Part shown: piece by piece, positions 1,411-14,054 of the stretch
Layout: every line of letters begins with the position of its first letter
How positions within the stretch are numbered: the first letter of the stretch is position 1
NCBI GenBank assembly: GCA_049999805.1
Contig: JBNGIO010005789.1
Location: 41,443-74,441, forward strand
Direction: 5' to 3'
Length of the DNA: 32,999 bases
Source: Folioceros fuciformis
Taxonomy: Eukaryota
Made by a program: the position numbers and the translations under genes
The notes under the pieces: generated by a model
Seen by the model: only the letters and a program-made list of their open reading frames with translations
Told to the model about the DNA's origin: nothing
Database searches by the model: none

Positions 1411-1714
1411 TACAAAACATGAAATTGAACATAACTTAGACATACATAATTTGGAGCTAGGCGTAACTTGTGATATTATCCATAGAAAAGGACTTGTGGC
1501 TACTCTACATTTGACAAGAGTCATCAAAAATACATTGCATGTATAAGAGACAATAAAAGCTCTTTATTCTTAAAAAGAGTCAACATGACAATACAAGAGA
1601 TCATAAAAGAAAACCCTTAGGACTCCTTCTCCTCTAGATTCCCTCTCTTCCTCCCCTCCAACTCTCCTTCAAAAACTCGCCTTCAACTCTCCTTCTCCTT
1701 GAGAGACTCGCATT

Positions 1715-1910
1715 CAACTCTCCTTCCAAAACTTCTCTTGAACTCTTCAATACACCCTACCTCCAACTCACTTGCAACTCTCTTTCCAAAACTTCCCTTG
1801 AACTCTTCAATACACCCTACCTCCAACTCACTTGCAACTCTCCTTCCAAAACTTCCCTTGAACTCTTCATTCCCTTGAACTCTTCAATACGCCCTACTCA
1901 ACCTTACTTG
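1715..1910. repeat. 60-bp tandem repeat, ~3 copies
   Basis: CAACTCTCCTTCCAAAACTTCCCTTGAACTCTTCAATACACCCTACCTCCAACTCACTTG at 1715 and 1775, a truncated copy at 1835, then a further partial copy. Confidence 0.9.
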
Positions 1911-3218
1911 CAAGACTGATCTCACTCCTAACTCTCATTTACACTCACCTCCTGAATTTGCGACGCACAATCTAAGCTATTGAAGATTCCAAACGTTAAA
2001 GTAAGTCAAAAAACTAATTTTAAGGTTCACTTAAAATTTATGAAACAAAAAGAAAAGAATGCTGAAGTAGATTTCGGGCTAAACTAAGCCTTATTGGGTT
2101 CCATGTCTATGTACCTATGTCATTCTACAACTAGATGTTGAGAGCATCATACCTTCACATGTTGAAGGCTGTGGTGTCGCTGTAAGGGTAAAACCTTACT
2201 GACCTGCATGCATGCGCTGCATGCCTCTCATGCACCGCTCCTTGCTTCGTATGCCTTTCTAACTGATAAGCGTTTGTTTCGTCTTCTAAGAGCCTGTTTT
2301 TTTCCTTTTCCCACGAAGAGAAAGGTTGTCTCATACCCCCCCACGACGATATCTGCGGCGGTTCTGGCAGAAAAAGATGCCGACATGGTCAGAGATTTGA
2401 CTATACATGCCCTTTCGGCATTATTTACGGAGTTTTCCAAGCAGCGCATGGGGAAGGGAGGACGTCTTACAAACAGAAAAGCCTCATGGAGGTTGGTAAG
2501 AATGGGGTGAAAACCAACCGCCTCGTCCCAGACTTCTTGGAGAGCTTCGTACACATACTCCAAGAATTTGGTAACCTCTCCCAAGGACCTGCGCCTTCTT
2601 CTATGCCATAGTCGCTTCACAGATGGTCCATTCCTTGAAAGAAGAGACAAAAACTATGAGACAGGAGCCACAGCCATACTGTGAAACGGAGATATGGATG
2701 CTCTGAACATTCAATCCCTCTGCCATCGCGCTGGACCAAGAGCACGGAAAACTCCAGCCCTGAAGCCCTGGACATAATCAACACCAGGGCGGCAACCAAT
2801 TGCCACCCGTGGCAGGGTAGGCGCGCCTGCAAGAAGTAGCGGAGCTCCGAGAGGGACCTGCCAGCGGCAAGGAGGCAGCGGGTAAGTATATTGTGGGACG
2901 AAATGGAGGGCCTTCCGTCGTACATGAAGAGATGTAGATCGCAAACAAAGAGAAGAGAACAACGCAGAAGAGAGCCAAAATCCGGGGCCTGCACCGGTGC
3001 CCTAACTACTCATCTCCAAACACCCGGCACATCCCAGCGAGTCCACACCAGGCAGAGGCAGCTTCTGTGTTGCATTGAAGATGAGAGTTGCCAGGATTAG
3101 CGTTAGCCGTCCCTGTCCATGTCTCAGTTTGGGTAGGAACGGAACAGAACGGGCCGGACTTGTCCACTTCTCAGTGAGCGTATTCACCCGAGGGGTACTC
3201 GCAACAATTGATTTTGTT

Positions 3219-6200
3219 TCACGGTCGCCCCTTACAACTGCAGCACCCAGCTGTGAATCGGTGTACACGGTACCCATCCCTTACAACAATGTCTCTGTCT
3301 TCAACCCTGGACATGATCTCCGTGGAACTGTGGCAGTCACTGCACATGCGGAGATTCTTCGTTACCACCAGAGGTGTCCCATTCGGAGTGTTTAAGAGAC
3401 CGAACGCTAAAGCTAGCTTCTCAGCATGCCCACAAAGCACATCTTCCTTCTCCGTCTCACACAGTGGCTTCAACACCAAGTTGGTGTGAGGTACGTGGCC
3501 TCCTTCGTGCTTCATACGTGCATTCGTGCTCTCTACCTTCAGCGCAATGTCCATTCTCCTTTCTCCCACCAGGAATCTGTGAACCTCCATATTCACCTCA
3601 ATGGTCGCCACTGCAGGTTTCTTTTTAGCTCCAGCTTTTTTTCTCTGTGTTTCGATTCTGTCGACATCGGTCCACCTACCTGCATCCGCGTAGGTATTGG
3701 CCAAGAGCACATAGGCAGACGCCATGTGAGGGTCCAGCCTAACAATGCTTTCGAAACACCACACAGCCCTCTCTACATCCCCGTAACTTTTGCAGGCATG
3801 CAACAGAGATATCAAGCCCACAACATCACTTTGGCCCTCACAAGATAATAGCATCTTCTCTGCCTCAACTAGATGGCCAGCACGACCAAGAAGATCAATC
3901 ATGCAGGTGTAATGTTCAATAGTAGGTTTGATGCCATGCTGTTCAGCCATGGAATCAAAGTATTTGCGACCCTGGTGGACCAGTCCTTCATGACTGCAAG
4001 CTGCTAGAAGGCAGGTAAAAGTAGCATCGTTAGGCTGAACACCGGCAACCAACATCTCCTCGAAACAAGCTATTGCCTTGTGAGCTTCATCACAAGCACC
4101 ATACCCAGATATCAGGGCATTCCATGTCACCACGTCCTTCGTGACCAAGCTGTCAAAAACCTGGCGAGCATCGGCCAACGCACCACATTTCACATACATG
4201 TCCACCAGGCAGTTGCCCACCAAACCATCATCCAGCAATCCTCTTCCTACAATCTTTGAGTGCAGCTCCCTGCCCTTCTGTAAGGCACCAGTGCTTGCAC
4301 AGGAGTTGAGAAGGCAAGCAAAAGTAACATCGTTAGCCAACTCGAGGCCCAACGCCTCCATTTGTCCATACGCAACAAGCGCCTCCTGGCAGAGTCCTTG
4401 CTGCGCATACCCGGCAATCAGGGTTGTCCATGTAACCACATCCTTTGTGTTCATGCTGTCAAAAACATGGCGTGCATGTTCCAGTTTGCCACATTTTGCA
4501 TACATGTCCACCAAGCAGTTGCCCACCACACCGCTGTCCAACAGTCCTCTATCCACAATCTGCAAGTGCAGTTGCATACCCTGCTGTAAGGCACCAGTGC
4601 TTCCACAGGCACTCAGAAGGCAAGAGAACGTAACATGGTCAGCCAAAATAAAGCCAGCCTCCTCCATCTGTGCATACACAACAAGCGCCTCTTGGCCAAG
4701 CCCCTGCTGTGCATACCCAGCAATCAGGGCTGTCCATGTTACCACATCCTTCGCGTCCATGCTGTCAAAAACCTGGCGTGCATCTTCCAGTTTGCCACAT
4801 TTTGCATACCCAGCAATCAACGCTGTCCACGTCACCACGTTCTTTGCGTTCATGCCGTCAAAAATCTGGCGTGCATCTTCGAGTTCACCACATTTTGCAT
4901 ACATGTCCACCAGGCAGGTGCCCACCACTACATCATCCAGCACACCTCTTTCAACAATCTGGGAGTGCAGCTGCCTGCCCTTCTGCAAGGCACCACTGCT
5001 TCCACAGGCCTTCAGAAGGCAAGCAAAAGTAAACTGGTCAGCCAAAATGAGGCCCGCCTCCTCCATTTGTCCATACACAACAAGCGCCTCTCGGCCTAGC
5101 CCTTCCTGCACATACCCAGCAATCAGGGAGGTCCATGTCACCACGTCCTTTGTGGCCATGTTGGCAAAAATCTGGCGTGCAACGTCCAGCTCGCCGCATT
5201 TTATATACCCAGCAATGAGAGCATTCCATGTCACCACATTCTTGGTATTCATGCTGTCGAAAACCTGGCGCGCATCTTCCATCTTGCCACATTTTGCATA
5301 CATGTCCACCAGGCCGGTGCCAACAAATACGTTAATAGGAACGCCACTCTGCACCACATCACAGTGCATTTTTCTGCCGGATTCAAAGTCGGCAACAAAT
5401 GCACATGATTGAAGGGCAGCCACAAACAAGTGAGCATCAGGCTTCACTCCTGACCTACGCATCTCATGGTAGAGTTGTATGGCCTCCTCAGGTTTCCCAT
5501 GCTTAGCATATGAGGAGATTATGGAAGACCACATGAAGACATTTGGTTTTCTCACCCTGGTGAACACACCCATGGCCTCCTCCAGCCGACCTCCACATGC
5601 ATACATGCGCAATATATGATACGCCAAGTTTGCACTCGACTCGTACCCAAGTTTGACAGTGAGATCATGAACTCGTCGCCCCACGACCAAATCCTTTTCA
5701 GCTGTACACAGTTTTAGAACATTGCACAAAAGAGACTGAGAAACAGAAGAGGCTGTCCGCACCAGAAATTCCAAGGCTCGTACGGCCTCAGAAAGCTTTC
5801 CCTGCTGACATAACGTGCTCACAGCATTAACGACACCCATTTCCGATCCTGCATGCCTCCCAGGTTCAGGCTTATCCTGAGAGCTGAAGTCGGAAAGAGA
5901 GGCACCATGGCCCATCGGATGTGGAACTGCTGGGCTCCGTACGCTACTGCACACGGAGCCCATTTCCAAACCTGCACACCTTTCACGGTCAGGATAATCC
6001 GGGGAGCTCAACTTGGAAGGAGAGGCACCATGGCCCATCAGCATATCCAAGGAACTGAGCTGCTCATCAACCCAAGTTGGCTTAAACATGTCATTCAACC
6101 ACAGCACCTCGCCGGACCCTTTTCGCCGGAAGTCAGGAGAAAGGGAGCTCTTCTTATCCCGTCTGTTATCCCACCACATGGTAGGGTCCATAAACAAGTG

Positions 6201-6467
6201 CTGCCACAAGTGCTCCTGCTCCTTCTCCTGGCAACCACCATCGCTGGCAAGCCCGTCCCTAACCACAGACTCTCTCAGCAGTGGCAGTGCTGGGCTACTT
6301 ACCCTGCTGCACCTGGAGGCTTTGCTTGCCAGGCATCGACTCCCTAAACCGAGACTACCAGGAGCTCTTGTTACAATCCCTGTCCGCACACTAATTTGTT
6401 GAGCCCCGCCTGAAAGCCATTGACGTGCATAGAGAAGAAAAGAACCATCAGCCTTCGCTGGGGCCAT
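3219..6467 (-). CDS. PLS-class PPR protein with E1/E2 and DYW:KP (GRP-type) domain plus N-terminal PDF motif; putative organellar (U-to-C) RNA editing factor
   Basis: Intronless 1082-aa ORF. R/S/A-rich transit-like N-terminus, ~20 P/L/S/SS motifs, then E1, E2, KKKPAVATIEV (KPAxA replacing the PG box), HAEKLA, KNLRMCSDCH and terminal CCSCKGRP. Confidence 0.96.
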   Translation of the reverse strand: MAPAKADGSFLLYARQWLSGGAQQISVRTGIVTRAPGSLGLGSRCLASKASRCSRVSSPALPLLRESVVRDGLASDGGCQEKEQEHLWQHLFMDPTMWWDNRRDKKSSLSPDFRRKGSGEVLWLNDMFKPTWVDEQLSSLDMLMGHGASPSKLSSPDYPDRERCAGLEMGSVCSSVRSPAVPHPMGHGASLSDFSSQDKPEPGRHAGSEMGVVNAVSTLCQQGKLSEAVRALEFLVRTASSVSQSLLCNVLKLCTAEKDLVVGRRVHDLTVKLGYESSANLAYHILRMYACGGRLEEAMGVFTRVRKPNVFMWSSIISSYAKHGKPEEAIQLYHEMRRSGVKPDAHLFVAALQSCAFVADFESGRKMHCDVVQSGVPINVFVGTGLVDMYAKCGKMEDARQVFDSMNTKNVVTWNALIAGYIKCGELDVARQIFANMATKDVVTWTSLIAGYVQEGLGREALVVYGQMEEAGLILADQFTFACLLKACGSSGALQKGRQLHSQIVERGVLDDVVVGTCLVDMYAKCGELEDARQIFDGMNAKNVVTWTALIAGYAKCGKLEDARQVFDSMDAKDVVTWTALIAGYAQQGLGQEALVVYAQMEEAGFILADHVTFSCLLSACGSTGALQQGMQLHLQIVDRGLLDSGVVGNCLVDMYAKCGKLEHARHVFDSMNTKDVVTWTTLIAGYAQQGLCQEALVAYGQMEALGLELANDVTFACLLNSCASTGALQKGRELHSKIVGRGLLDDGLVGNCLVDMYVKCGALADARQVFDSLVTKDVVTWNALISGYGACDEAHKAIACFEEMLVAGVQPNDATFTCLLAACSHEGLVHQGRKYFDSMAEQHGIKPTIEHYTCMIDLLGRAGHLVEAEKMLLSCEGQSDVVGLISLLHACKSYGDVERAVWCFESIVRLDPHMASAYVLLANTYADAGRWTDVDRIETQRKKAGAKKKPAVATIEVNMEVHRFLVGERRMDIALKVESTNARMKHEGGHVPHTNLVLKPLCETEKEDVLCGHAEKLALAFGLLNTPNGTPLVVTKNLRMCSDCHSSTEIMSRVEDRDIVVRDGYRVHRFTAGCCSCKGRP

Positions 6468-7255
6468 CGTTCACGGGCAGCTGTCGGAATTGCATTCCCG
6501 GAAAGCAAGAGCTCCACGGTCCAACGAGTTCGACAAGCTACACACCTACCAAACGAACAAAGCAGAGAAACAATGTCACGCAACATTGGAATCAGGTGGC
6601 ATGGAGAGAAGATATAACTGAAAGTTGTCGAAATCATCCTTACCTGTTTTCTACTAACTCTGCTGCAGAGCACAGAAGCATGAGCAAGACCTGCAAACAC
6701 AACCTTCAAGCTTCCACGCCGGTATTGTGCCCTTCCTGGATTTCTCGGGAGGTGCAAGACGAAGGTCCCTTGACAGAAAACAGGTCTTTCACAAGGATCA
6801 GACTCCCATGCCTTGTCCAGTCCACAGATTCGTCCCCAAAACTCCACATCGTTGGACCCCTGCCCGAAATAGGGCTTGAGATCTTAAATTAAAGGCAGGA
6901 TCGGTCTCTTGTCCTTCAAATTTGCTGAGTATGTGATACGAGGCCACAGCATGGTTTCGCTTCCTGACGAAACCCGACACTATAACCGAAGGTCGGGCAC
7001 CTTCCTCCCCAACACTCTGTACAGTTTACCACCAGCTGGGTTCACCAGGGTCTATGATTGGGCTGCCAGGCAGTCCCCGCAGGAGCCAGTGAGAAGTTGG
7101 CATATCAGCATCGAGAGCATATGGTACCATGGCCTCCAACCAAGAGCTCTGCAAGTAACAATCTTAAGGTATGCAAGTGGTCAGTCTTCCACACACCGTG
7201 AGAGACTAGAAAATTGACGTGCAATGACATGCAAGCGCCAGTGTATATGACCAGA

Positions 7256-7286: not shown

Positions 7287-7836
7287 GCGCGAATGCAAAT
7301 GCACATGAGGAGGGAAGGAGGAAAGTGCTGCGCAGCTGCGCCCAGACCTTCGATCCCGACGCCTGACTCTTCACGACTCGAATCGGGTGCGCACAATCTG
7401 AAGAGTGGGCCCTCGGATTCTTCCCTGGCGGTAGCGATCTCATGCCGTTCCTTCGTGCGGGGGGACGAATTTGCGCAGAAGTTTGGGCAGGAGCGGAGTG
7501 GGCAGGTTGGATTACATTTTTTTCCGTGTTGCTGGAATTGGCAGAGTTCCCGGGGCTGTGTCTCATCCGAAGCGCAGGCCGGCGGGAGGACTGCGTGCGG
7601 ATGACGGGGGGATGTAGGCAGGAGAAGTGGATGCGTTCCCAAGGCGGATCTGGATCGCTGCTCTTACGCTGGGACTTCCTGCAACCTTCCCCCTAGCTGC
7701 GGGCTTGGCTTGAGTTCTGGCTTGAGTGGTGGATCAGGGATCCGGGGGAAGGGGGCGGTAGAGGGGCTGTGTTCGGGCGGGGATTGATTTTTGAGAGGTC
7801 GGTGCAAAGGATTCCGTTGTTTGGGAGCAGGGAGTC

Positions 7837-9418
7837 ATGGAGGCAGGTGCTGGTTACGAGGAGGTTCCCGAGACCGAGATGGTTGCTGCAGACACGGATC
7901 CGCTTGTCAGACCGGAGAGGCCTCGTCGTCACCAGTCAGTTTTCCCTGGAGCCGTCAAGACGATGTCTTACAGATTTGACGGGCATGGGAAGTTCACCAA
8001 GCTGGACTGGGACCTGAGTAGGGAGTGGGAAGGGGGTGATCTGGGGTTTAGTTGGTTCCATGTGGAGCTGCCGAGGTCTATTAAGAATCCGGCCGTGGCG
8101 GCACAGTATCTGATTGATGTGCTGTGTCCGCCGTTGAAGTTGCAGGATATTTTGGCCATGGTGAGCACTGGGCCGTTCTGTGGGCCTGTGGATGGGGCGT
8201 TGATGTTTAGGGTGAACTCTGCGGGTCCGCCCGGTAGTAAGTTTACTCAGAAGATTGCTGCCCGTGTCACTAAAGATACAGTCATCACGGTGTCGTTAGG
8301 TAGGATTCCCAGACTGGAGTTCTTGAGTAACCCCACTCAATCGCTGCTTACGGAGATCCCCAGTGTGGAGCCACCTTCTGGGCGGGCGGACAGGTACTTG
8401 GCTTCTCAGTCTTCGTTCCGAGGGAGGAACTTGAAGGATTACCCGGAGAGTATAGTGATTCAGGAGCATGTGTTGGAGTTTTTGTTGACCATGAATCATC
8501 CCGATGATCTGGAAAATCAGATTCCAACTGATGTGCCCAAGCTGATCATCCACATTGTGGACACGCACATCGACCAGCTTCAGGATATTGTTATCAGATT
8601 GGAGGCGGAATTGGATGTTGTTGAGAATGAGATGGACTCAAGTAAGCTGGTGTGAGTGTTTTGTTTGTGTGAGACAATACCGACTGCTTTGTCGAACCGC
8701 AGGCTGATGATTGATTCTGTACTGCCAGGTGGTTACGGAGTCAAGAAACAGATGCTTGACGAAAGGCGGTTCCCTCAAATGCATCTGGATTTGCAGCGGC
8801 TTCTCCAGGTGATTGCTCATGGGGAACAGGTTTTCCCACGAGTCAAGGACAAGTGGGGACGTTCAGAAAAGTGGACTGCGGTAGATGATGTCGCTGCCCT
8901 TGAAGCACTCGTGGGACGGCTCAGGAAGCTGAAAGAGAACGTTGGTTTCATAGCCAGTCGTGTTACTGCTATTCAGGCTGGGCTGACGTCTTGGCAGTCT
9001 GAGCAAATCAACCGCAAGCTCTACTATCTGTCGTTCCTCTCCATGATATTTCTGCCCCTGTCCATCGTCACTGGAGGTAGGTCTCAACTCAGGAACACGT
9101 CCTTGCTACTAGCCGAGGGTTGGGGACTCTACTAACTCTGGCTTGTGTTCAGCTTTTGGCATGAATGTGGGAGGGATTCCATGGACAGAGCAGAAGAACC
9201 CGGCCTTGAGAGACGGCTTTCTCAACGTCATTTTAATATGCTCAGCCATCTTGGGCCTGCTCCTCTTGTGCTTTTGTGCCGGACCTGTTGTCTCCTTCCT
9301 TTCCACAGGGCGCAAGAAAGCCGCTGCCAGCAAGCTGTGGCAGAGTACCAAGCGCACCATGTCTATCAGCAGGAGGAAAGGTGCTCTACACTCCAACAGG
9401 ATACACGACTCTCCCTAG
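7837..9418 (+). CDS. CorA/ZntB-like Mg2+/Zn2+ transporter; exons 7837-8641, 8729-9076, 9153-9418
   Basis: Frame is preserved across two GT-AG introns (87 and 76 nt). C-terminal ...IFLPLSIVTG/AFGMNVGGIPW carries the CorA GMN signature and two TM helices. Confidence 0.92.
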
Positions 9419-10150
9419 AGTGTGGTGGGAGTGTTGCATGGACAGGGAGCGCCACGCCACCTCACCCATCAACATCAACCTGTGCCCGCCTTTTTCAGGG
9501 CTTTGTCCTCCAATCAATCCCTTGCGATTCTTTCTCCTCCAGTCAGCCACCTGCGATTCTTTCTCCTGCAATCGACCGTCGGCCAGTTGGCCTCACCTGA
9601 TGAACTAGGCCCCGTGCTTGATTCCGTCTGGTCATGGTAATAATTTTTACTCTTGCGTAAGATGCAGCCCCAACTGGTACTTCCGATCGGAATCTGCAAG
9701 GCCGCTGAAGCACGCTTCTCTCATCATCTCATGACCATCATGCACTGTCTGACAATGGAAATGAGACGCGTGCTTATGAGACGATTTGTTACTAGTAGAT
9801 TGAGTCGGGCTCATCAGATGTCTCTCATGTACGTGGAGTCCCAGACTGGATCTCGATATAATTCCATGAGCGGGGCGGATAAGGGCCTGGCCAGCCTCAC
9901 CCAAATGAAGATTCTTGGGACGCTTCCGGCGGGTGTAGCGACAGCCCGATTGCCATCTAAGCGGGATGGGCCGCGATGAAGCCGACGCGGTGGCGACAGT
10001 GCCAATTTGCCCTGCCTTGTTTTCTCAAGTGCAAATTTTTTGTCTCACTCGCCTTGTTTGAAGGATTGGATTTTTGTAGTGATGGTAATTCTCAAGGCTT
10101 GCTCTAGGATTGCTGCCAGCGTTGCAGATCGGGGGTTGGAGCACAATCAC

Positions 10151-12266
10151 ATGGGCCTGGGCCTGCTGTCCACGTCTCCCCAGCTCGCGATAGCCCGCAG
10201 CCTGGTCCTTCAGAGGGGACATTATGGGGATGTGAGAAGGCTCAGCTGCAGCAGAAGCAGAGGCGGAATCAGCAGAAGCAGGCATGCAGTTGTGTGTGAA
10301 TTCTGTGTTTTGCTGCCCAGACCCCGACCCAGGAGAAGATGTTCCGTTTCCGTTCCAGCCCACCAGTTTGTGGGTCGCGCGGGGAGGATCTGCAAGAGGA
10401 AGTACGGGCTTGGTGTGGTTTCTTTTGCCGCATTGTCGTCGTTTGCAAGTGGAGAGGAGGGAGAGACGGCCGGTCAGGGTTTAGAGGATGTGGTGGAGGA
10501 TTTTGAGTCGATTTCCAGCGAGGAGGCCCAAGTCTTCATGCACAGTGGGAGCAGCAGTAGCAAGCTGGGAGCTGCCAGCAATGGAGCGAGCAGTGCGCAC
10601 ATGAAGATGGCAGGGGAGGCCGATGCCACTGGCGGGATGCAAGGGATGGCGGAAGCCTTCAATATTTCGTCACGCACGGCAGTGGGGATCACTGGGAGCA
10701 TAGCGGTGGCAGCGTTTGTGGTGCCCATTTTCCTGCAGTCGTCGGCTGCTGGGTTGACGCTCAAGACTCGGGTCCTGTCGTACGCCACGCTGCTGTTTGG
10801 GTTCTACATGGCTTGGAACATAGGAGCGAACGATGTGGCGAATGCAATGGGGACATCGGTGGGTTCTGGTGCACTCACGCTGCGCCAGGCAGTGCTCACG
10901 GCCGCAGTACTGGAATTTTCTGGAGCCTTCTTGGTTGGATCGCATGTCAGTCATACAATGCAGAGTGGGATCTTGGTTGCTGATGTGTTCAAGGGACGAG
11001 ATTCCATGCTGTTTTCAGGGATGCTAGCATCCCTAGCTGCTGCTGGGACGTGGCTGCAGGTATGTGTATCTCTTGCTGCCTTTTTTGGGCTGCTTCCTGC
11101 TTCCAGATCTCGGGGCTCTGACTCGCTGACGTCTTGTTGGGATGGCAGGTTGCATCGTTTTACGGATGGCCTGTGTCAACAACCCACTGTATCATTGGTG
11201 CAATGGTGGGCTTTGGGATTGTGTATGGAGGAATTGGAGCTGTTTATTGGACGTCTTTAGCCCGTGTAGTTTCGTCATGGGTTGTATCACCACTCATGGG
11301 CGCTGCAGTCTCCTTCGTCGTGTACAAATGCATCCGTGTGGTAGGATTTTCAGCTGTGAGCATATCAAAGGATTGGAAACTGATGCAAGGCCAGTTCGTT
11401 TGGTGGGCTGACCTTAATTGTGTTTCTCTTGTGATCAGTTTGTGTACAGGGCACCAAATCCAGGTCAGGCAGCAGCTAAAGCTGCTCCACTTGCCGTCTT
11501 TGTTGGTATCACAGCTCTATCGTTCACAACTCTGCATGGGTCTGGAGACCCCCTGATTGCTGTGGCCAAAGCTTTGGCCTTTGGGTTATTGGGTGCAGCT
11601 GCTATCAGCACGGTCATTAACCAGCAAGTAGGTCAGCTTCTTGGGGACTATTGTGAACTTCCTTCCCCGTCTGACGAACAGGAAAACAAAAATTTACGAC
11701 GTTTGAGCTTGAACTTGCTAGCCAAGGTTGGAGGTCCGACTGGGACTCAGTTGAGGATTGTATACAGTATATTCGGGTATTTGCAAGTTTTGTCTGCTTG
11801 CTTCATGTCATTTGCACATGGGGCAAATGATGTTGCCAACGCTATTGGACCAATCTCAGCTGCTTTGGCAATACTTCACGGCAGCAGTGGGCAGGTGGGC
11901 ATGTCAACGGAAGTGTTAGCTTGGGGTGGATTCGGTATTGTGGCCGGCTTGTTAGTTTGGGGATATCGGGTGATTGCAACAATCGGGAACAAAATCACAG
12001 AATTGACTCCGACGAGGGGATTCGCTGCAGAGTTTGCAGCTGCCACTGTGGTTGTGGTTGCTTCAAGGCTGGGGCTGCCCATTTCCGCTACACATACCTT
12101 GGTGGGCGCTGTCATGGGAGTGGGGTTTGCCAGGGGCCTCAACAGTGTTCGAGGTGAAGTGGTCAGGGAGATTGCGGCATCGTGGCTAGTCACAGTCCCA
12201 GTAGGAGCCATTCTTTCCGTGATGTATGCATCTGTTCTCGTCAGGTTGATCCCTTCCCTGGTATAG
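10151..12266 (+). CDS. PHT2;1: Plastid inorganic phosphate transporter, PiT/PHO4 family; exons 10151-11059, 11149-11340, 11439-12266 (alternative ATG at 10082)
   Basis: Two PiT signatures ([20 protein letters not shown] and [15 protein letters not shown]), PVSTTH and PISATH motifs, a long R/S-rich transit peptide, and GT-AG introns of 89 and 98 nt. Confidence 0.93.
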
Positions 12267-12289
12267 AAGGCCGTGTTCCCTTTCCCGTT

Positions 12290-12390
12290 TCCATGGGATG
12301 CAGAAGGCCTGGTGGGGATTGCATTGTTCACGCCAGGAAATCGGGAAGATCCTCTTCCTGACATGCTTAAGGTACTCAAGGGGCTGGGAA
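12290..12390 (+). pseudogene. Possible receptor-like kinase subdomain XI remnant downstream of PHT2;1
   Basis: Across frameshifts it reads ..GLHCSRQEIGK / PDMLKVLKGL, resembling the RLK 'GLxCxxxxPxxRPxMxxVLxxL' motif. Weak. Confidence 0.25.
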
Positions 12391-13135
12391 ATCAGCCAGT
12401 TGCATCTTACAGGACGTGCAGTTTCAGACTCGCATCTGCGTGTTATGGCGGGAGTTGTGATCAGAACGAATTCAGATTCTGGAGCAGGGCCTTTGAACGA
12501 ATTAGTCGATTCTAACAAGCTTTCCTAACATTGTGTTCCCGTGGAGAGACTGTCGATCAAGGCAGCAGACTATCTTGTAGATAATTTGATTCTTCTTTAT
12601 GTTTTGACTGATTATCCAAGTCCCCCTGACCCCTCCCCTAATCCTTGGCACTTAGTGGGTTCAAAGCTCGAGGCTGCTCTGATCTGCATGTTGATCCACT
12701 TTCTGGTCGTCGACAAGTTCGAGAAAAAGTTGTCATGTGTCGTGAGTCACTGCCTACTGTAAGATGTCACACCGGGATACACTGTTTTTCATGGTGAAAG
12801 AACTTCGATGTCTCAAGTCTCTTTCGTACAACACGAATCCCGCCTTCTGCACAGTGTGTCTTACTGGTGGTAAAGATTTCTGTGTAATCACAACATGAAC
12901 CGAGTGCTCTAGCCGAGATGATTTGTGTGTGTCCAAAGCAAGCGAGCTATCCAAAGCTACCTGTCATGTAGCTGTTGCTGTGTTTGAATCTTCTGCATGT
13001 CGGAGTAATCTCTTCAACTTCTTCTGCCCGGACTCCATCATACGAATTGCCCCGTTGGAAGGTCGAATTGGAGATGCGAATATTCCAACACAACATCGTA
13101 GCTTGCTCTTCACCGCAGGCTGCTTATCAATATTG

Positions 13136-13787
13136 TTACGGTAGACCCTTACAACTGCAACAGCCAGCTGCAAATCGATGCCCTCGGTACCCATCCCTTA
13201 CAACAATGTCCATTAATTCAAGCCTGGACATGATCTCCGTGGAGGTGTAGTAGTCACTGCACGTGCGTAGATTTTTGGTTACAATCCGATTCGTGCCCAT
13301 GGGAGTGTTCAAGAGACCGTACGCCAGAGCTAGCTTTCCAGCGTGCCCACAAAGGAGGTCTTCCTTCTCCTTCTCGCATTGTAGCTTCACGACCAAATTT
13401 GTGTGTGAGGTCAGTAGACGCCTTCCTGCTTTAGACGAGCATTAGCCCTCTCTACCTTCAGCAAGATCCTCTCCTTTCTCCCACCAGAAATCTCTGTACC
13501 TCGTCGCTCACCACAATGCTTGCCACTGCAGGTTTCCTGTTAGCTCCTGCAGCCCTTCTCTGTGTCTCAATTCTGTCTACATCGGCCCACCTGCATGCGT
13601 CTGCACAGGCATTGGCCATAAGCACACAGTCCGGTCTCCCCTGGGGTCCAGCCTAACAATGCTTTCAAAACAACACACAGCCCTGCCCTGCCCTGCCCTC
13701 TGCCTCATCTACACGGCCAGCACGCCAAACAAGATCAATCATGCAGGTGTAATGCATAGTGGGTCTGATGCCGATCCCATGCTGTTC
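13136..13787 (-). pseudogene. DYW:KP PPR pseudogene fragment (S2/E/DYW part)
   Basis: Colinear with 3219-3945. HAEKLA is HAGKLA, CSDC is CSDY and GRP is GLP. It has frameshifts and a ~90-nt deletion replaced by (CCCTG)n at ~13681-13700. Confidence 0.9.
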
Positions 13788-14054
13788 CCTTCCCTGGAGA
13801 CGCACCAATTGGTTGGGATACAAAACAGGTCCGGTTGCCAAACTGTGGCCATCGTTCAGGCACCGAGGTCGGATGTGTCTGACAGCCTACAGCAGAGTGC
13901 CGAGGTACGACAGTGGGAGACCAAGCTTGCTATGCGGGCCTGTAGGTGGTTTGAAGGCGAATGGACAGACATACGAGCTCTCCAAACTCCAGCTCCCTAA
14001 ACCCTGAATCAAAGAAGAAGTAAAAAATTGTATAAATCTATAATTTAGTCTATA

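Follow-up and report, generated by a model that had tools for sequence, protein, structure and literature searches.

An intact gene in Folioceros fuciformis for a GRP-type PPR-DYW:KP protein, a candidate natural U-to-C RNA editing factor

We analyzed a 32,999-nucleotide stretch of Folioceros fuciformis DNA (the window; contig JBNGIO010005789.1 of assembly GCA_049999805.1, with positions counted from the first letter of the stretch) and found on its minus strand an intact gene for a pentatricopeptide repeat (PPR) protein with a C-terminal DYW:KP domain. We think it probable that this is a nuclear gene for an editing factor that acts at specific sites of organelle RNA, belongs to the GRP subgroup of the PPR-DYW:KP class and converts U to C. 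The reading frame is intact, all of the motifs of the subgroup are present, and the domain belongs to a clade of domains that end in Gly-Arg-Pro (GRP). The C-terminal domain adopts the DYW fold in a predicted structure. We infer that the protein is sent to an organelle, which sequence it targets and in which direction it works. An earlier note on this DNA, made by a model from the letters alone, had called the protein an active reverse editor, and this is a reasonable inference.

The coding sequence is a single uninterrupted open reading frame of 1082 codons (3249 nt) at positions 3219-6467 of the minus strand, running from an ATG at 6465-6467 to a stop codon at 3219-3221. There is an in-frame stop one codon upstream of the ATG. 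The 1082-residue protein matched the Pfam families PPR (E 5e-105) and PPR_2 (E 7.9e-99), the E motif at residues 895-957, and DYW_deaminase (PF14432) at residues 990-1080, covering profile positions 1-91 of 93 (E 1.7e-32). The features of the gene, with the evidence for each in brackets, are as follows.

3219-6467, minus strand: coding sequence of a PLS-class PPR protein, 1082 aa, with a C-terminal GRP-type DYW:KP domain (open frame; Pfam PPR, PPR_2, E_motif and DYW_deaminase)
3222-3620, minus strand: DYW:KP deaminase-like domain, residues 950-1082, 133 aa (motifs, alignment, AlphaFold model, Foldseek)
3420-3428, minus strand: HAE codons (His1014-Ala1015-Glu1016), expected zinc ligand and catalytic glutamate (codons checked against the DNA)
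3357-3359, minus strand: codon of Lys1037, lysine 88 of the domain (codon checked against the DNA; Lys in 80 of 80 aligned rows)
3333-3344, minus strand: CxxC zinc ligands, Cys1042-Ser-Asp-Cys1045 (codons checked against the DNA; both Cys in 80 of 80 rows)
3222-3230, minus strand: terminal Gly-Arg-Pro codons, at the place of the canonical Asp-Tyr-Trp (sequence and alignment)
3621-3824, minus strand: segment between the 20-motif PPR array and the DYW domain (segmentation by motif lengths; Pfam E_motif at 895-957)
3825-5837, minus strand: putative RNA-binding array of 20 PPR motifs, residues 211-881 (segmentation, Pfam PPR families, DNA-level repeats)
5838-6467, minus strand: N-terminal 210 residues, with no Pfam match (sequence; family search)
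6546-6643, minus strand: 98-nt intron in the 5' untranslated region (UTR), GT..AG on the minus strand (spliced contig of run X1 compared with a continuous DNA contig of run X2)
6644-7184, minus strand: first, non-coding exon, minimum extent, bounded by the contig end (contig of run X1)

We numbered the residues of the C-terminal domain from the K of KPAVA as position 1. KPAVA occupies positions 1-5, where canonical domains carry the PG box, and is followed by HRFLVGERRMDI at positions 14-25, by HAE, not HSE, at positions 65-67 (H65 and E67), by Lys88 within TKNLRM, and by CSDC at positions 93-96 (C93 and C96) with His97 next to it. The domain also has Glu101, His120 and a CxC (127 and 129), and it ends in CxC-K-GRP, with GRP at 131-133. 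His1014 and Glu1016 were invariant in one of our alignments (A2). The net length is 133 residues, compared to 136 in 23 of 46 PG-type domains, the difference being four residues fewer at HPxx and one extra residue further on. The four residues are missing at the beginning of the gating insertion, in the place of the HPxx of PG-type domains; in OTP86 the gating domain is an insertion of about 55 residues, H837-G891 (PMC7611903). Judged by its sequence context, the motif set is not a chance pattern, because the domain ends a frame of 1082 codons and matches Pfam DYW_deaminase at the E value given above.

These results bear out the description in the earlier note. KPAVA, HAE, CSDC and the GRP end were all found by translation, with the codons for HAE and for the cysteines read in the DNA, and the shortened gating region that had been claimed corresponds to the four residues lacking at the HPxx point. 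The domain was rightly called intact, in that it closes the frame and matches DYW_deaminase almost end to end. The interval given for it, 3219-3627, takes in the stop codon and 135 codons but includes one extra base, and was given with the strand (minus) unstated.

We compared the domain with 79 relatives that were found with it as query. The 80 rows were sorted by the residue that follows the catalytic histidine, so the split between HAE and HSE is the sorting label itself: 34 rows were HAE (KP), five of them ending in GRP and 29 others, and 46 were HSE (PG). At position 3 of the box, all five GRP rows and 27 of the 29 other KP rows had Ala (32 of 34 HAE rows); the PG rows had Gly there in 43 of 46 cases. 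Position 5 was Ala in five of five GRP and 26 of 29 other KP rows (31 of 34) and Ser in 45 of 46 PG rows. Domain length was 132-133 residues in 25 of the 34 HAE rows and 136 in 23 of the 46 HSE rows. Two positions set the GRP rows apart from the other KP rows. Position 101 was Lys in all 29 of the others and in none of the GRP rows, which have Glu (three of five, including this protein), Thr or Gln, and position 131 was Gly in all five GRP rows and Asp in 26 of 29 others. Lys88 was present in every one of the 80 rows, including the 46 PG rows, and is therefore needed but not discriminating.

In a quick maximum-likelihood tree of the 80 domains, all 34 KP rows fell on one side of a branch with a Shimodaira-Hasegawa-like approximate likelihood ratio (SH-aLRT) value of 89, apart from the 46 PG rows. 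The five GRP-ending rows, including this protein, formed a clade (SH-aLRT 98) nested among DRH-ending rows. The domain thus did not cluster with canonical DYW:PG domains, the outcome that the earlier note had named as refuting its reading.

We assigned the domain to the GRP variant of the DYW:KP class because motifs, domain length, tree position and fold agree. The features of PPR-DYW:KP proteins are all there, namely a PLS array with E1 and E2, HxE...CxxC, KP(A)xA, HAE, a length of 132-133 residues without xHP, Lys88 and the tree position, and so are those of the GRP variant, namely the Gly-Arg-Pro end, Glu in place of the Lys partner of the Asp in DYW, and a distinct clade. The PG box, HSE and DYW terminus of canonical domains are replaced by KPAVA, HAE and GRP. 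These are the characters described in print. DYW:KP domains depart from DYW:PG domains at the PG box, in the region of HxE...CxxC and at the DYW terminus, and most of them lack xHP (PMC9478123); they have Ala or Cys after the catalytic His (HAE or HCE) and 132-133 residues without the xHP residues (PMC9478123, PMC11845758). There are two hornwort KP variants, DRH and GRP, named from the last three residues, and GRP proteins are without the conserved Asp of DYW and have Glu instead of its Lys partner (PMC9478123). DYW:KP domains are confined to hornworts, lycophytes and ferns (PMC9478123), a restriction confirmed over 364 genomes, 22 of them from hornworts (PMC13386178), and both papers agree with what the earlier note had said on this point.

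The protein shares with the hornwort GRP-type DYW:KP proteins the PLS array with E1 and E2, KPAxA, HAE, the 133-residue length, Lys88, Glu for the Lys partner, the GRP end and the clade. There was no difference from them in defining features; this protein has in addition two SS motifs and an N-terminal WWDNR-PDF motif. Descriptions of such GRP-type proteins are credited in PMC9478123 to Gerke et al. 2020 and Gutmann et al. 2020. The DRH-type DYW:KP proteins are its nearest neighbours in the tree and have the same KP box, HAE, deletion and Lys88, but they have Asp131, Lys101 and a DRH end where this protein has Gly131, Glu101 and GRP. Canonical DYW:PG proteins (OTP86, DYW1 and a synthetic PPR-DYW; structures 7o4e and 7o4f, 7w86 and 9kfx) share the fold, the zinc ligands, the glutamate and the active-site lysine. 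They differ in having PGxS, HSE, a gating insertion whose start is four residues longer and a DYW end, and they are at most 47% identical to this domain. The designer proteins KP2 and KP3, consensus versions of GRP-type domains, are of the same subgroup, and the residues they need (HAE, CxxC and K88) are all in this protein (PMC9478123). They are synthetic consensus domains on an artificial PLS array whereas this gene is natural and has its own array, and we likened the two by motifs, not by aligned sequences.

The nearest database proteins, unnamed records with a GRP or DRH end, were 73-60% identical in the domain, and these relatives point to a hornwort as the source of the gene. Proteins named as from the fern Adiantum were 53% and 50% identical in the domain, and PG-type seed-plant proteins were at most 46% identical. 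The exact protein was not found in the protein collection searched, where the best matches were 73% (domain) and 53% (full length). A scan of 1.84 billion cluster representatives recovered 2412 relatives (E ≤ 0.001), of which the top 150 comprised 104 with HSE, 16 with HAE, 13 with HCE and 17 that were not parsed by the pattern. Two representatives, P0081 (463 aa) and P0083 (531 aa), each had two separate stretches that match the DYW:KP query and may be tandem or split DYW domains. The Protein Atlas, searched with the E2-DYW part, returned generic Streptophyta DYW and E-motif clusters only, with no finer taxon.

An AlphaFold model of residues 915-1082, built from a 73-row alignment, had a mean predicted local distance difference test score of 94.5 and no residue below 70. 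With this predicted structure as query, the top Foldseek match in the PDB was 9kfx_A, a synthetic PPR-DYW protein bound to RNA (E 3e-18; template modelling score 0.92 on the query; root mean square deviation 1.7). The next matches were the DYW domain of OTP86, both active (7o4f) and inactive (7o4e), and DYW1 (7w86), with generic cytidine deaminases far behind. The solved structures matched by sequence were the same three PG-type sets, and no KP-type structure turned up among them.

When the protein was divided according to standard motif lengths, working backwards from residue 950, we found 22 motifs in register: P-L-S, two units of P1-L1-S1-SS, two of P1-L1-S1, and P2-L2-S2-E1-E2. The array is also visible as DNA repeats with periods of 306 and 399 nt (80-82% matches) at 4100-5321. 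In the two-residue PPR code (fifth and last residues), T/N corresponds to A, T/D and S/D to G, N/D to U, and N/N to C or U. Read by this code, the P, S and SS motifs give a predicted target of about 5'-nnnGnAUGnAGGnUAnU(C/U)nGnn-3'. Over the full length the closest relative was P0002, another GRP protein, with 53% identity across 1003 columns and neither of the two SS motifs.

The N-terminus starts with a Ser/Arg/Ala-rich sequence, presumed to be an organelle transit peptide. Further in, ahead of the PPR array, residues 88-136 (6060-6206, minus strand) form a block of the pattern LW..(F/L)F..P..WWDNR..K....PDF(R/K)(R/H)K......LW.....P.WV, within which this protein reads WWDNR...PDFRRK at residues 98-116, with P-D-F at 111-113. 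WWDNR-like and PDF(R/K) patterns occurred together in 17 of 340 compared proteins: this one, P0002 and 15 PPR proteins of Diphasiastrum complanatum. The block had no match in Pfam, in the Protein Atlas or among shorter proteins. The PDF motif of OSB proteins, organellar proteins that bind single-stranded DNA, has a consensus that we take to contain WWDNR and PDFKHK. The N-terminal block recalls this motif, the likeness being to that consensus rather than to compared OSB sequences. The OSB motif is described as about 50 residues long with a conserved Pro-Asp-Phe (PMC6963530), and in literature pairing the PDF motif with pentatricopeptide we found no description of a PDF-type module on PPR editing factors, only that review. 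Between the N-terminal motif and the first PPR motif, residues 144-208 (5844-6038, minus strand) contain two similar stretches of about 30 residues, each beginning MGHGAS; P0002 is gapped over most of this duplication.

There is a second, decayed and partial GRP-type PPR copy at 13130-13787 (minus strand), 10 kb from the intact gene and comprising the L2-to-DYW part only. Its DNA identity to the intact gene is 78%, and nothing in it corresponds to gene positions 3771-3857. The frame of this copy is broken by stops and by one or more frameshifts, and HAG stands for HAE, CSDY for CSDC and GLP for GRP. The contrast supports constraint on the intact gene: in the unconstrained copy, HAE no longer has its Glu and CxxC no longer has its second Cys.

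We looked for transcription in sequencing runs. Run X1 was taken as RNA on the basis of its intron-less contigs, and X2 is a DNA run from the same organism. X1 contigs span neighboring genes without introns and with no mismatches (7341-8641 / 8729-9074 / 9151-11055 / 11438-12614), and X1 had no cover in the intergenic bins at 1-1602, while X2 covered all 30 bins. At the 5' end of the gene, an X1 contig with no mismatches joins 6161-6543 to 6642-7184, and an X2 contig is continuous over 6161-7079. The skipped 98 nt are GT..AG on the minus strand, and the X1 contig therefore represents a spliced minus-strand transcript that includes the start codon and extends over the initial 307 nt of the coding sequence. 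The 5' end of the gene is thus transcribed. No long mismatch-free X1 contig over 3219-6160 was found among the matches listed, and runs of two other organisms (X13 and X5, organisms B and C) gave diverged pieces only over the gene. Directly downstream of the PPR stop codon, X1 also covered 1603-3204 at a depth of about 29-37, with a mismatch-free piece at 2471-2858. Frames in 1603-3204 match no Pfam family, and the cover may come from an extended 3' UTR of the gene or from a non-coding transcript of its own.

If the protein is a U-to-C editing factor, we would expect it to act as follows. Its N-terminus would direct import into the plastid or mitochondrion, where the 20 PLS-type PPR motifs with E1 and E2 would attach to a single stretch of single-stranded organelle RNA, with one motif to each base. 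The pocket of the C-terminal zinc deaminase-like domain would thereby receive the base that lies four nucleotides downstream of the S2 motif, and the domain would convert uridine to cytidine. In the mechanism proposed in print for synthetic KP proteins, Lys88 (here Lys1037) attacks C4 of the uridine to give a Schiff-base intermediate; the conversion would also need Glu1016 and the zinc site (His1014, Cys1042 and Cys1045). KP domains were described by the earlier note as converting U to C heterologously, and this holds in E. coli and human cells, for synthetic consensus proteins only (PMC9478123). The GRP-based KP2 and KP3 gave about 26% and 22% U-to-C editing (PMC9478123). Changing HAE to HAA, CxxC to AxxA, or K88 to A abolishes U-to-C editing in KP2, KP3 and KP6 (PMC9478123, PMC11845758), and Lys88 is essential to the U-to-C activity of designer KP proteins (PMC11845758).

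Several points weigh against assigning U-to-C activity to this protein, or against the evidence on which the assignment draws. By 2025 no natural KP protein had been put to an assay, and the activity of such proteins is stated to be unknown (PMC11845758). The change made by synthetic KP proteins accompanies a covalent lysine-RNA crosslink, and U-to-C editing was not reproduced in vitro (PMC11332814); KP6 also does C-to-U editing, in human cells and in vitro (PMC11845758, PMC11332814). These three observations make the direction and turnover of the native reaction less certain. Our tree was a quick IQ-TREE search over 138 columns with many unresolved forks; its rows are all matches to this query, and its group labels were taken from motifs inside the alignment. 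Among the best 120 of 8000 scored candidates we did not find a closer orthologue of the PPR array than P0002 (53%) and P0004 (51%). The evidence for transcription is confined to 6161-7184, with 307 nt of coding sequence, and the cover over the rest of the gene consists of thousands of short paralogue contigs, uninformative on expression, with inflated depth at 3205-6408 and 12817-13884.

The main rival explanation is that the protein edits C to U, or in both directions, and that the KP and GRP features tune substrate handling without reversing the reaction in the plant. It is the main rival because the synthetic U-to-C reaction fails in vitro and KP6 edits C to U. In addition, the protein has the complete zinc site of a hydrolytic deaminase together with its glutamate, and substitutions of K88 make KP2, KP3 and KP6 C-to-U editors (PMC11845758, PMC11332814). 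Lys88 is, however, intact in this protein. KP2 and KP3 gave U-to-C editing and no C-to-U editing that was detectable in E. coli (PMC9478123), and the KP subgroup is confined to lineages that edit U to C (PMC9478123, PMC13386178). On balance a C-to-U or dual activity seems unlikely.

The protein might instead bind RNA without catalysis, as a stabilizer, a processing factor or a specificity partner of another enzyme, which we regard as a rather small chance. The GRP end has neither the Asp nor the Trp, two residues at which mutation reduces or eliminates editing in PG-type proteins (PMC9478123), the Lys partner of the Asp is also gone, and GRP-based designs are the weakest of the active editors (22-26%; PMC9478123). 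On the other hand, all of the catalytic and zinc-binding residues are kept over 133 residues, and they are lost in the nearby decayed copy. Moreover, GRP-type consensus proteins are active, and their activity depends on HAE, CxxC and K88 (PMC9478123, PMC11845758). That the gene is a recent, unexpressed or dying paralogue whose frame has simply not yet decayed is very improbable: the family is huge (the 2412 representative clusters), a broken copy lies 10 kb away and no run among those listed is recorded as RNA, but a stop-free frame of 3249 nt with all functional residues is unexpected for a decaying copy, the spliced contig covers the 5' UTR and start codon, and at only 78% DNA identity the gene is not a very recent duplicate of the neighboring fragment.

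The gene lies in intron-bearing plant nuclear DNA of 51% G+C. Other frames in the window match CorA, PHO4, AP2, CRM, phosphopantetheinyl transferase, FAD-binding monooxygenase and a bacterial-like globin. A mismatch-free X1 contig extends over 7341-12614 (plus strand) with introns removed at 8642-8728, 9075-9150, 11056-11144 and 11340-11437, and lies over both the CorA (8656-9132) and PHO4 (9980-12263) frames. Two neighboring genes may have been fused during assembly, or the transcript may read through from one into the other. There are tandem repeats in the intergenic DNA downstream of the PPR gene, at 486-748 (three copies of an 88-nt unit, 80% matches) and at 1663-1886 (2.6 copies of a 60-nt unit, 96% matches).

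The GRP subgroup, its motifs and its engineering use are already in print, and what is new is this protein. The earlier note had suggested the domain as a programmable RNA-editing tool; its value in that respect is limited, because consensus designs from the same GRP subgroup already exist. To our knowledge, U-to-C is the one pyrimidine transition without a clean programmable RNA editor, and the chemistry of the plant reaction is unresolved. The gene is one of many in a subgroup known since 2020 and contributes a candidate, not a new principle. It is natural, intact and of the GRP type, shows evidence of transcription and has a PPR array that can be read, which makes it a reasonable candidate for an assay of a natural KP protein, and its value is as a natural test case.

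One idea that such a case bears on, which we hold only tentatively and consider unlikely, is that a natural GRP-type protein is a true multi-turnover U-to-C enzyme, unlike the synthetic KP editors, which apparently stall as lysine-RNA crosslinks. In a fern, the edited RNAs bear no crosslink (PMC11332814). A rebuilt C-terminal lock, in which the Asp-Lys pair has been lost together and Gly131 is combined with Glu, Thr or Gln at 101 (five of five GRP rows), might account for the difference in turnover. The other feature that might explain it is the N-terminal WWDNR-PDF module, which resembles in pattern the single-strand-binding PDF motif of OSB proteins and may be an accessory nucleic-acid-binding or release element. 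If the multi-turnover idea is true, the natural GRP protein would differ from the crosslink-stalled synthetic KP editors.

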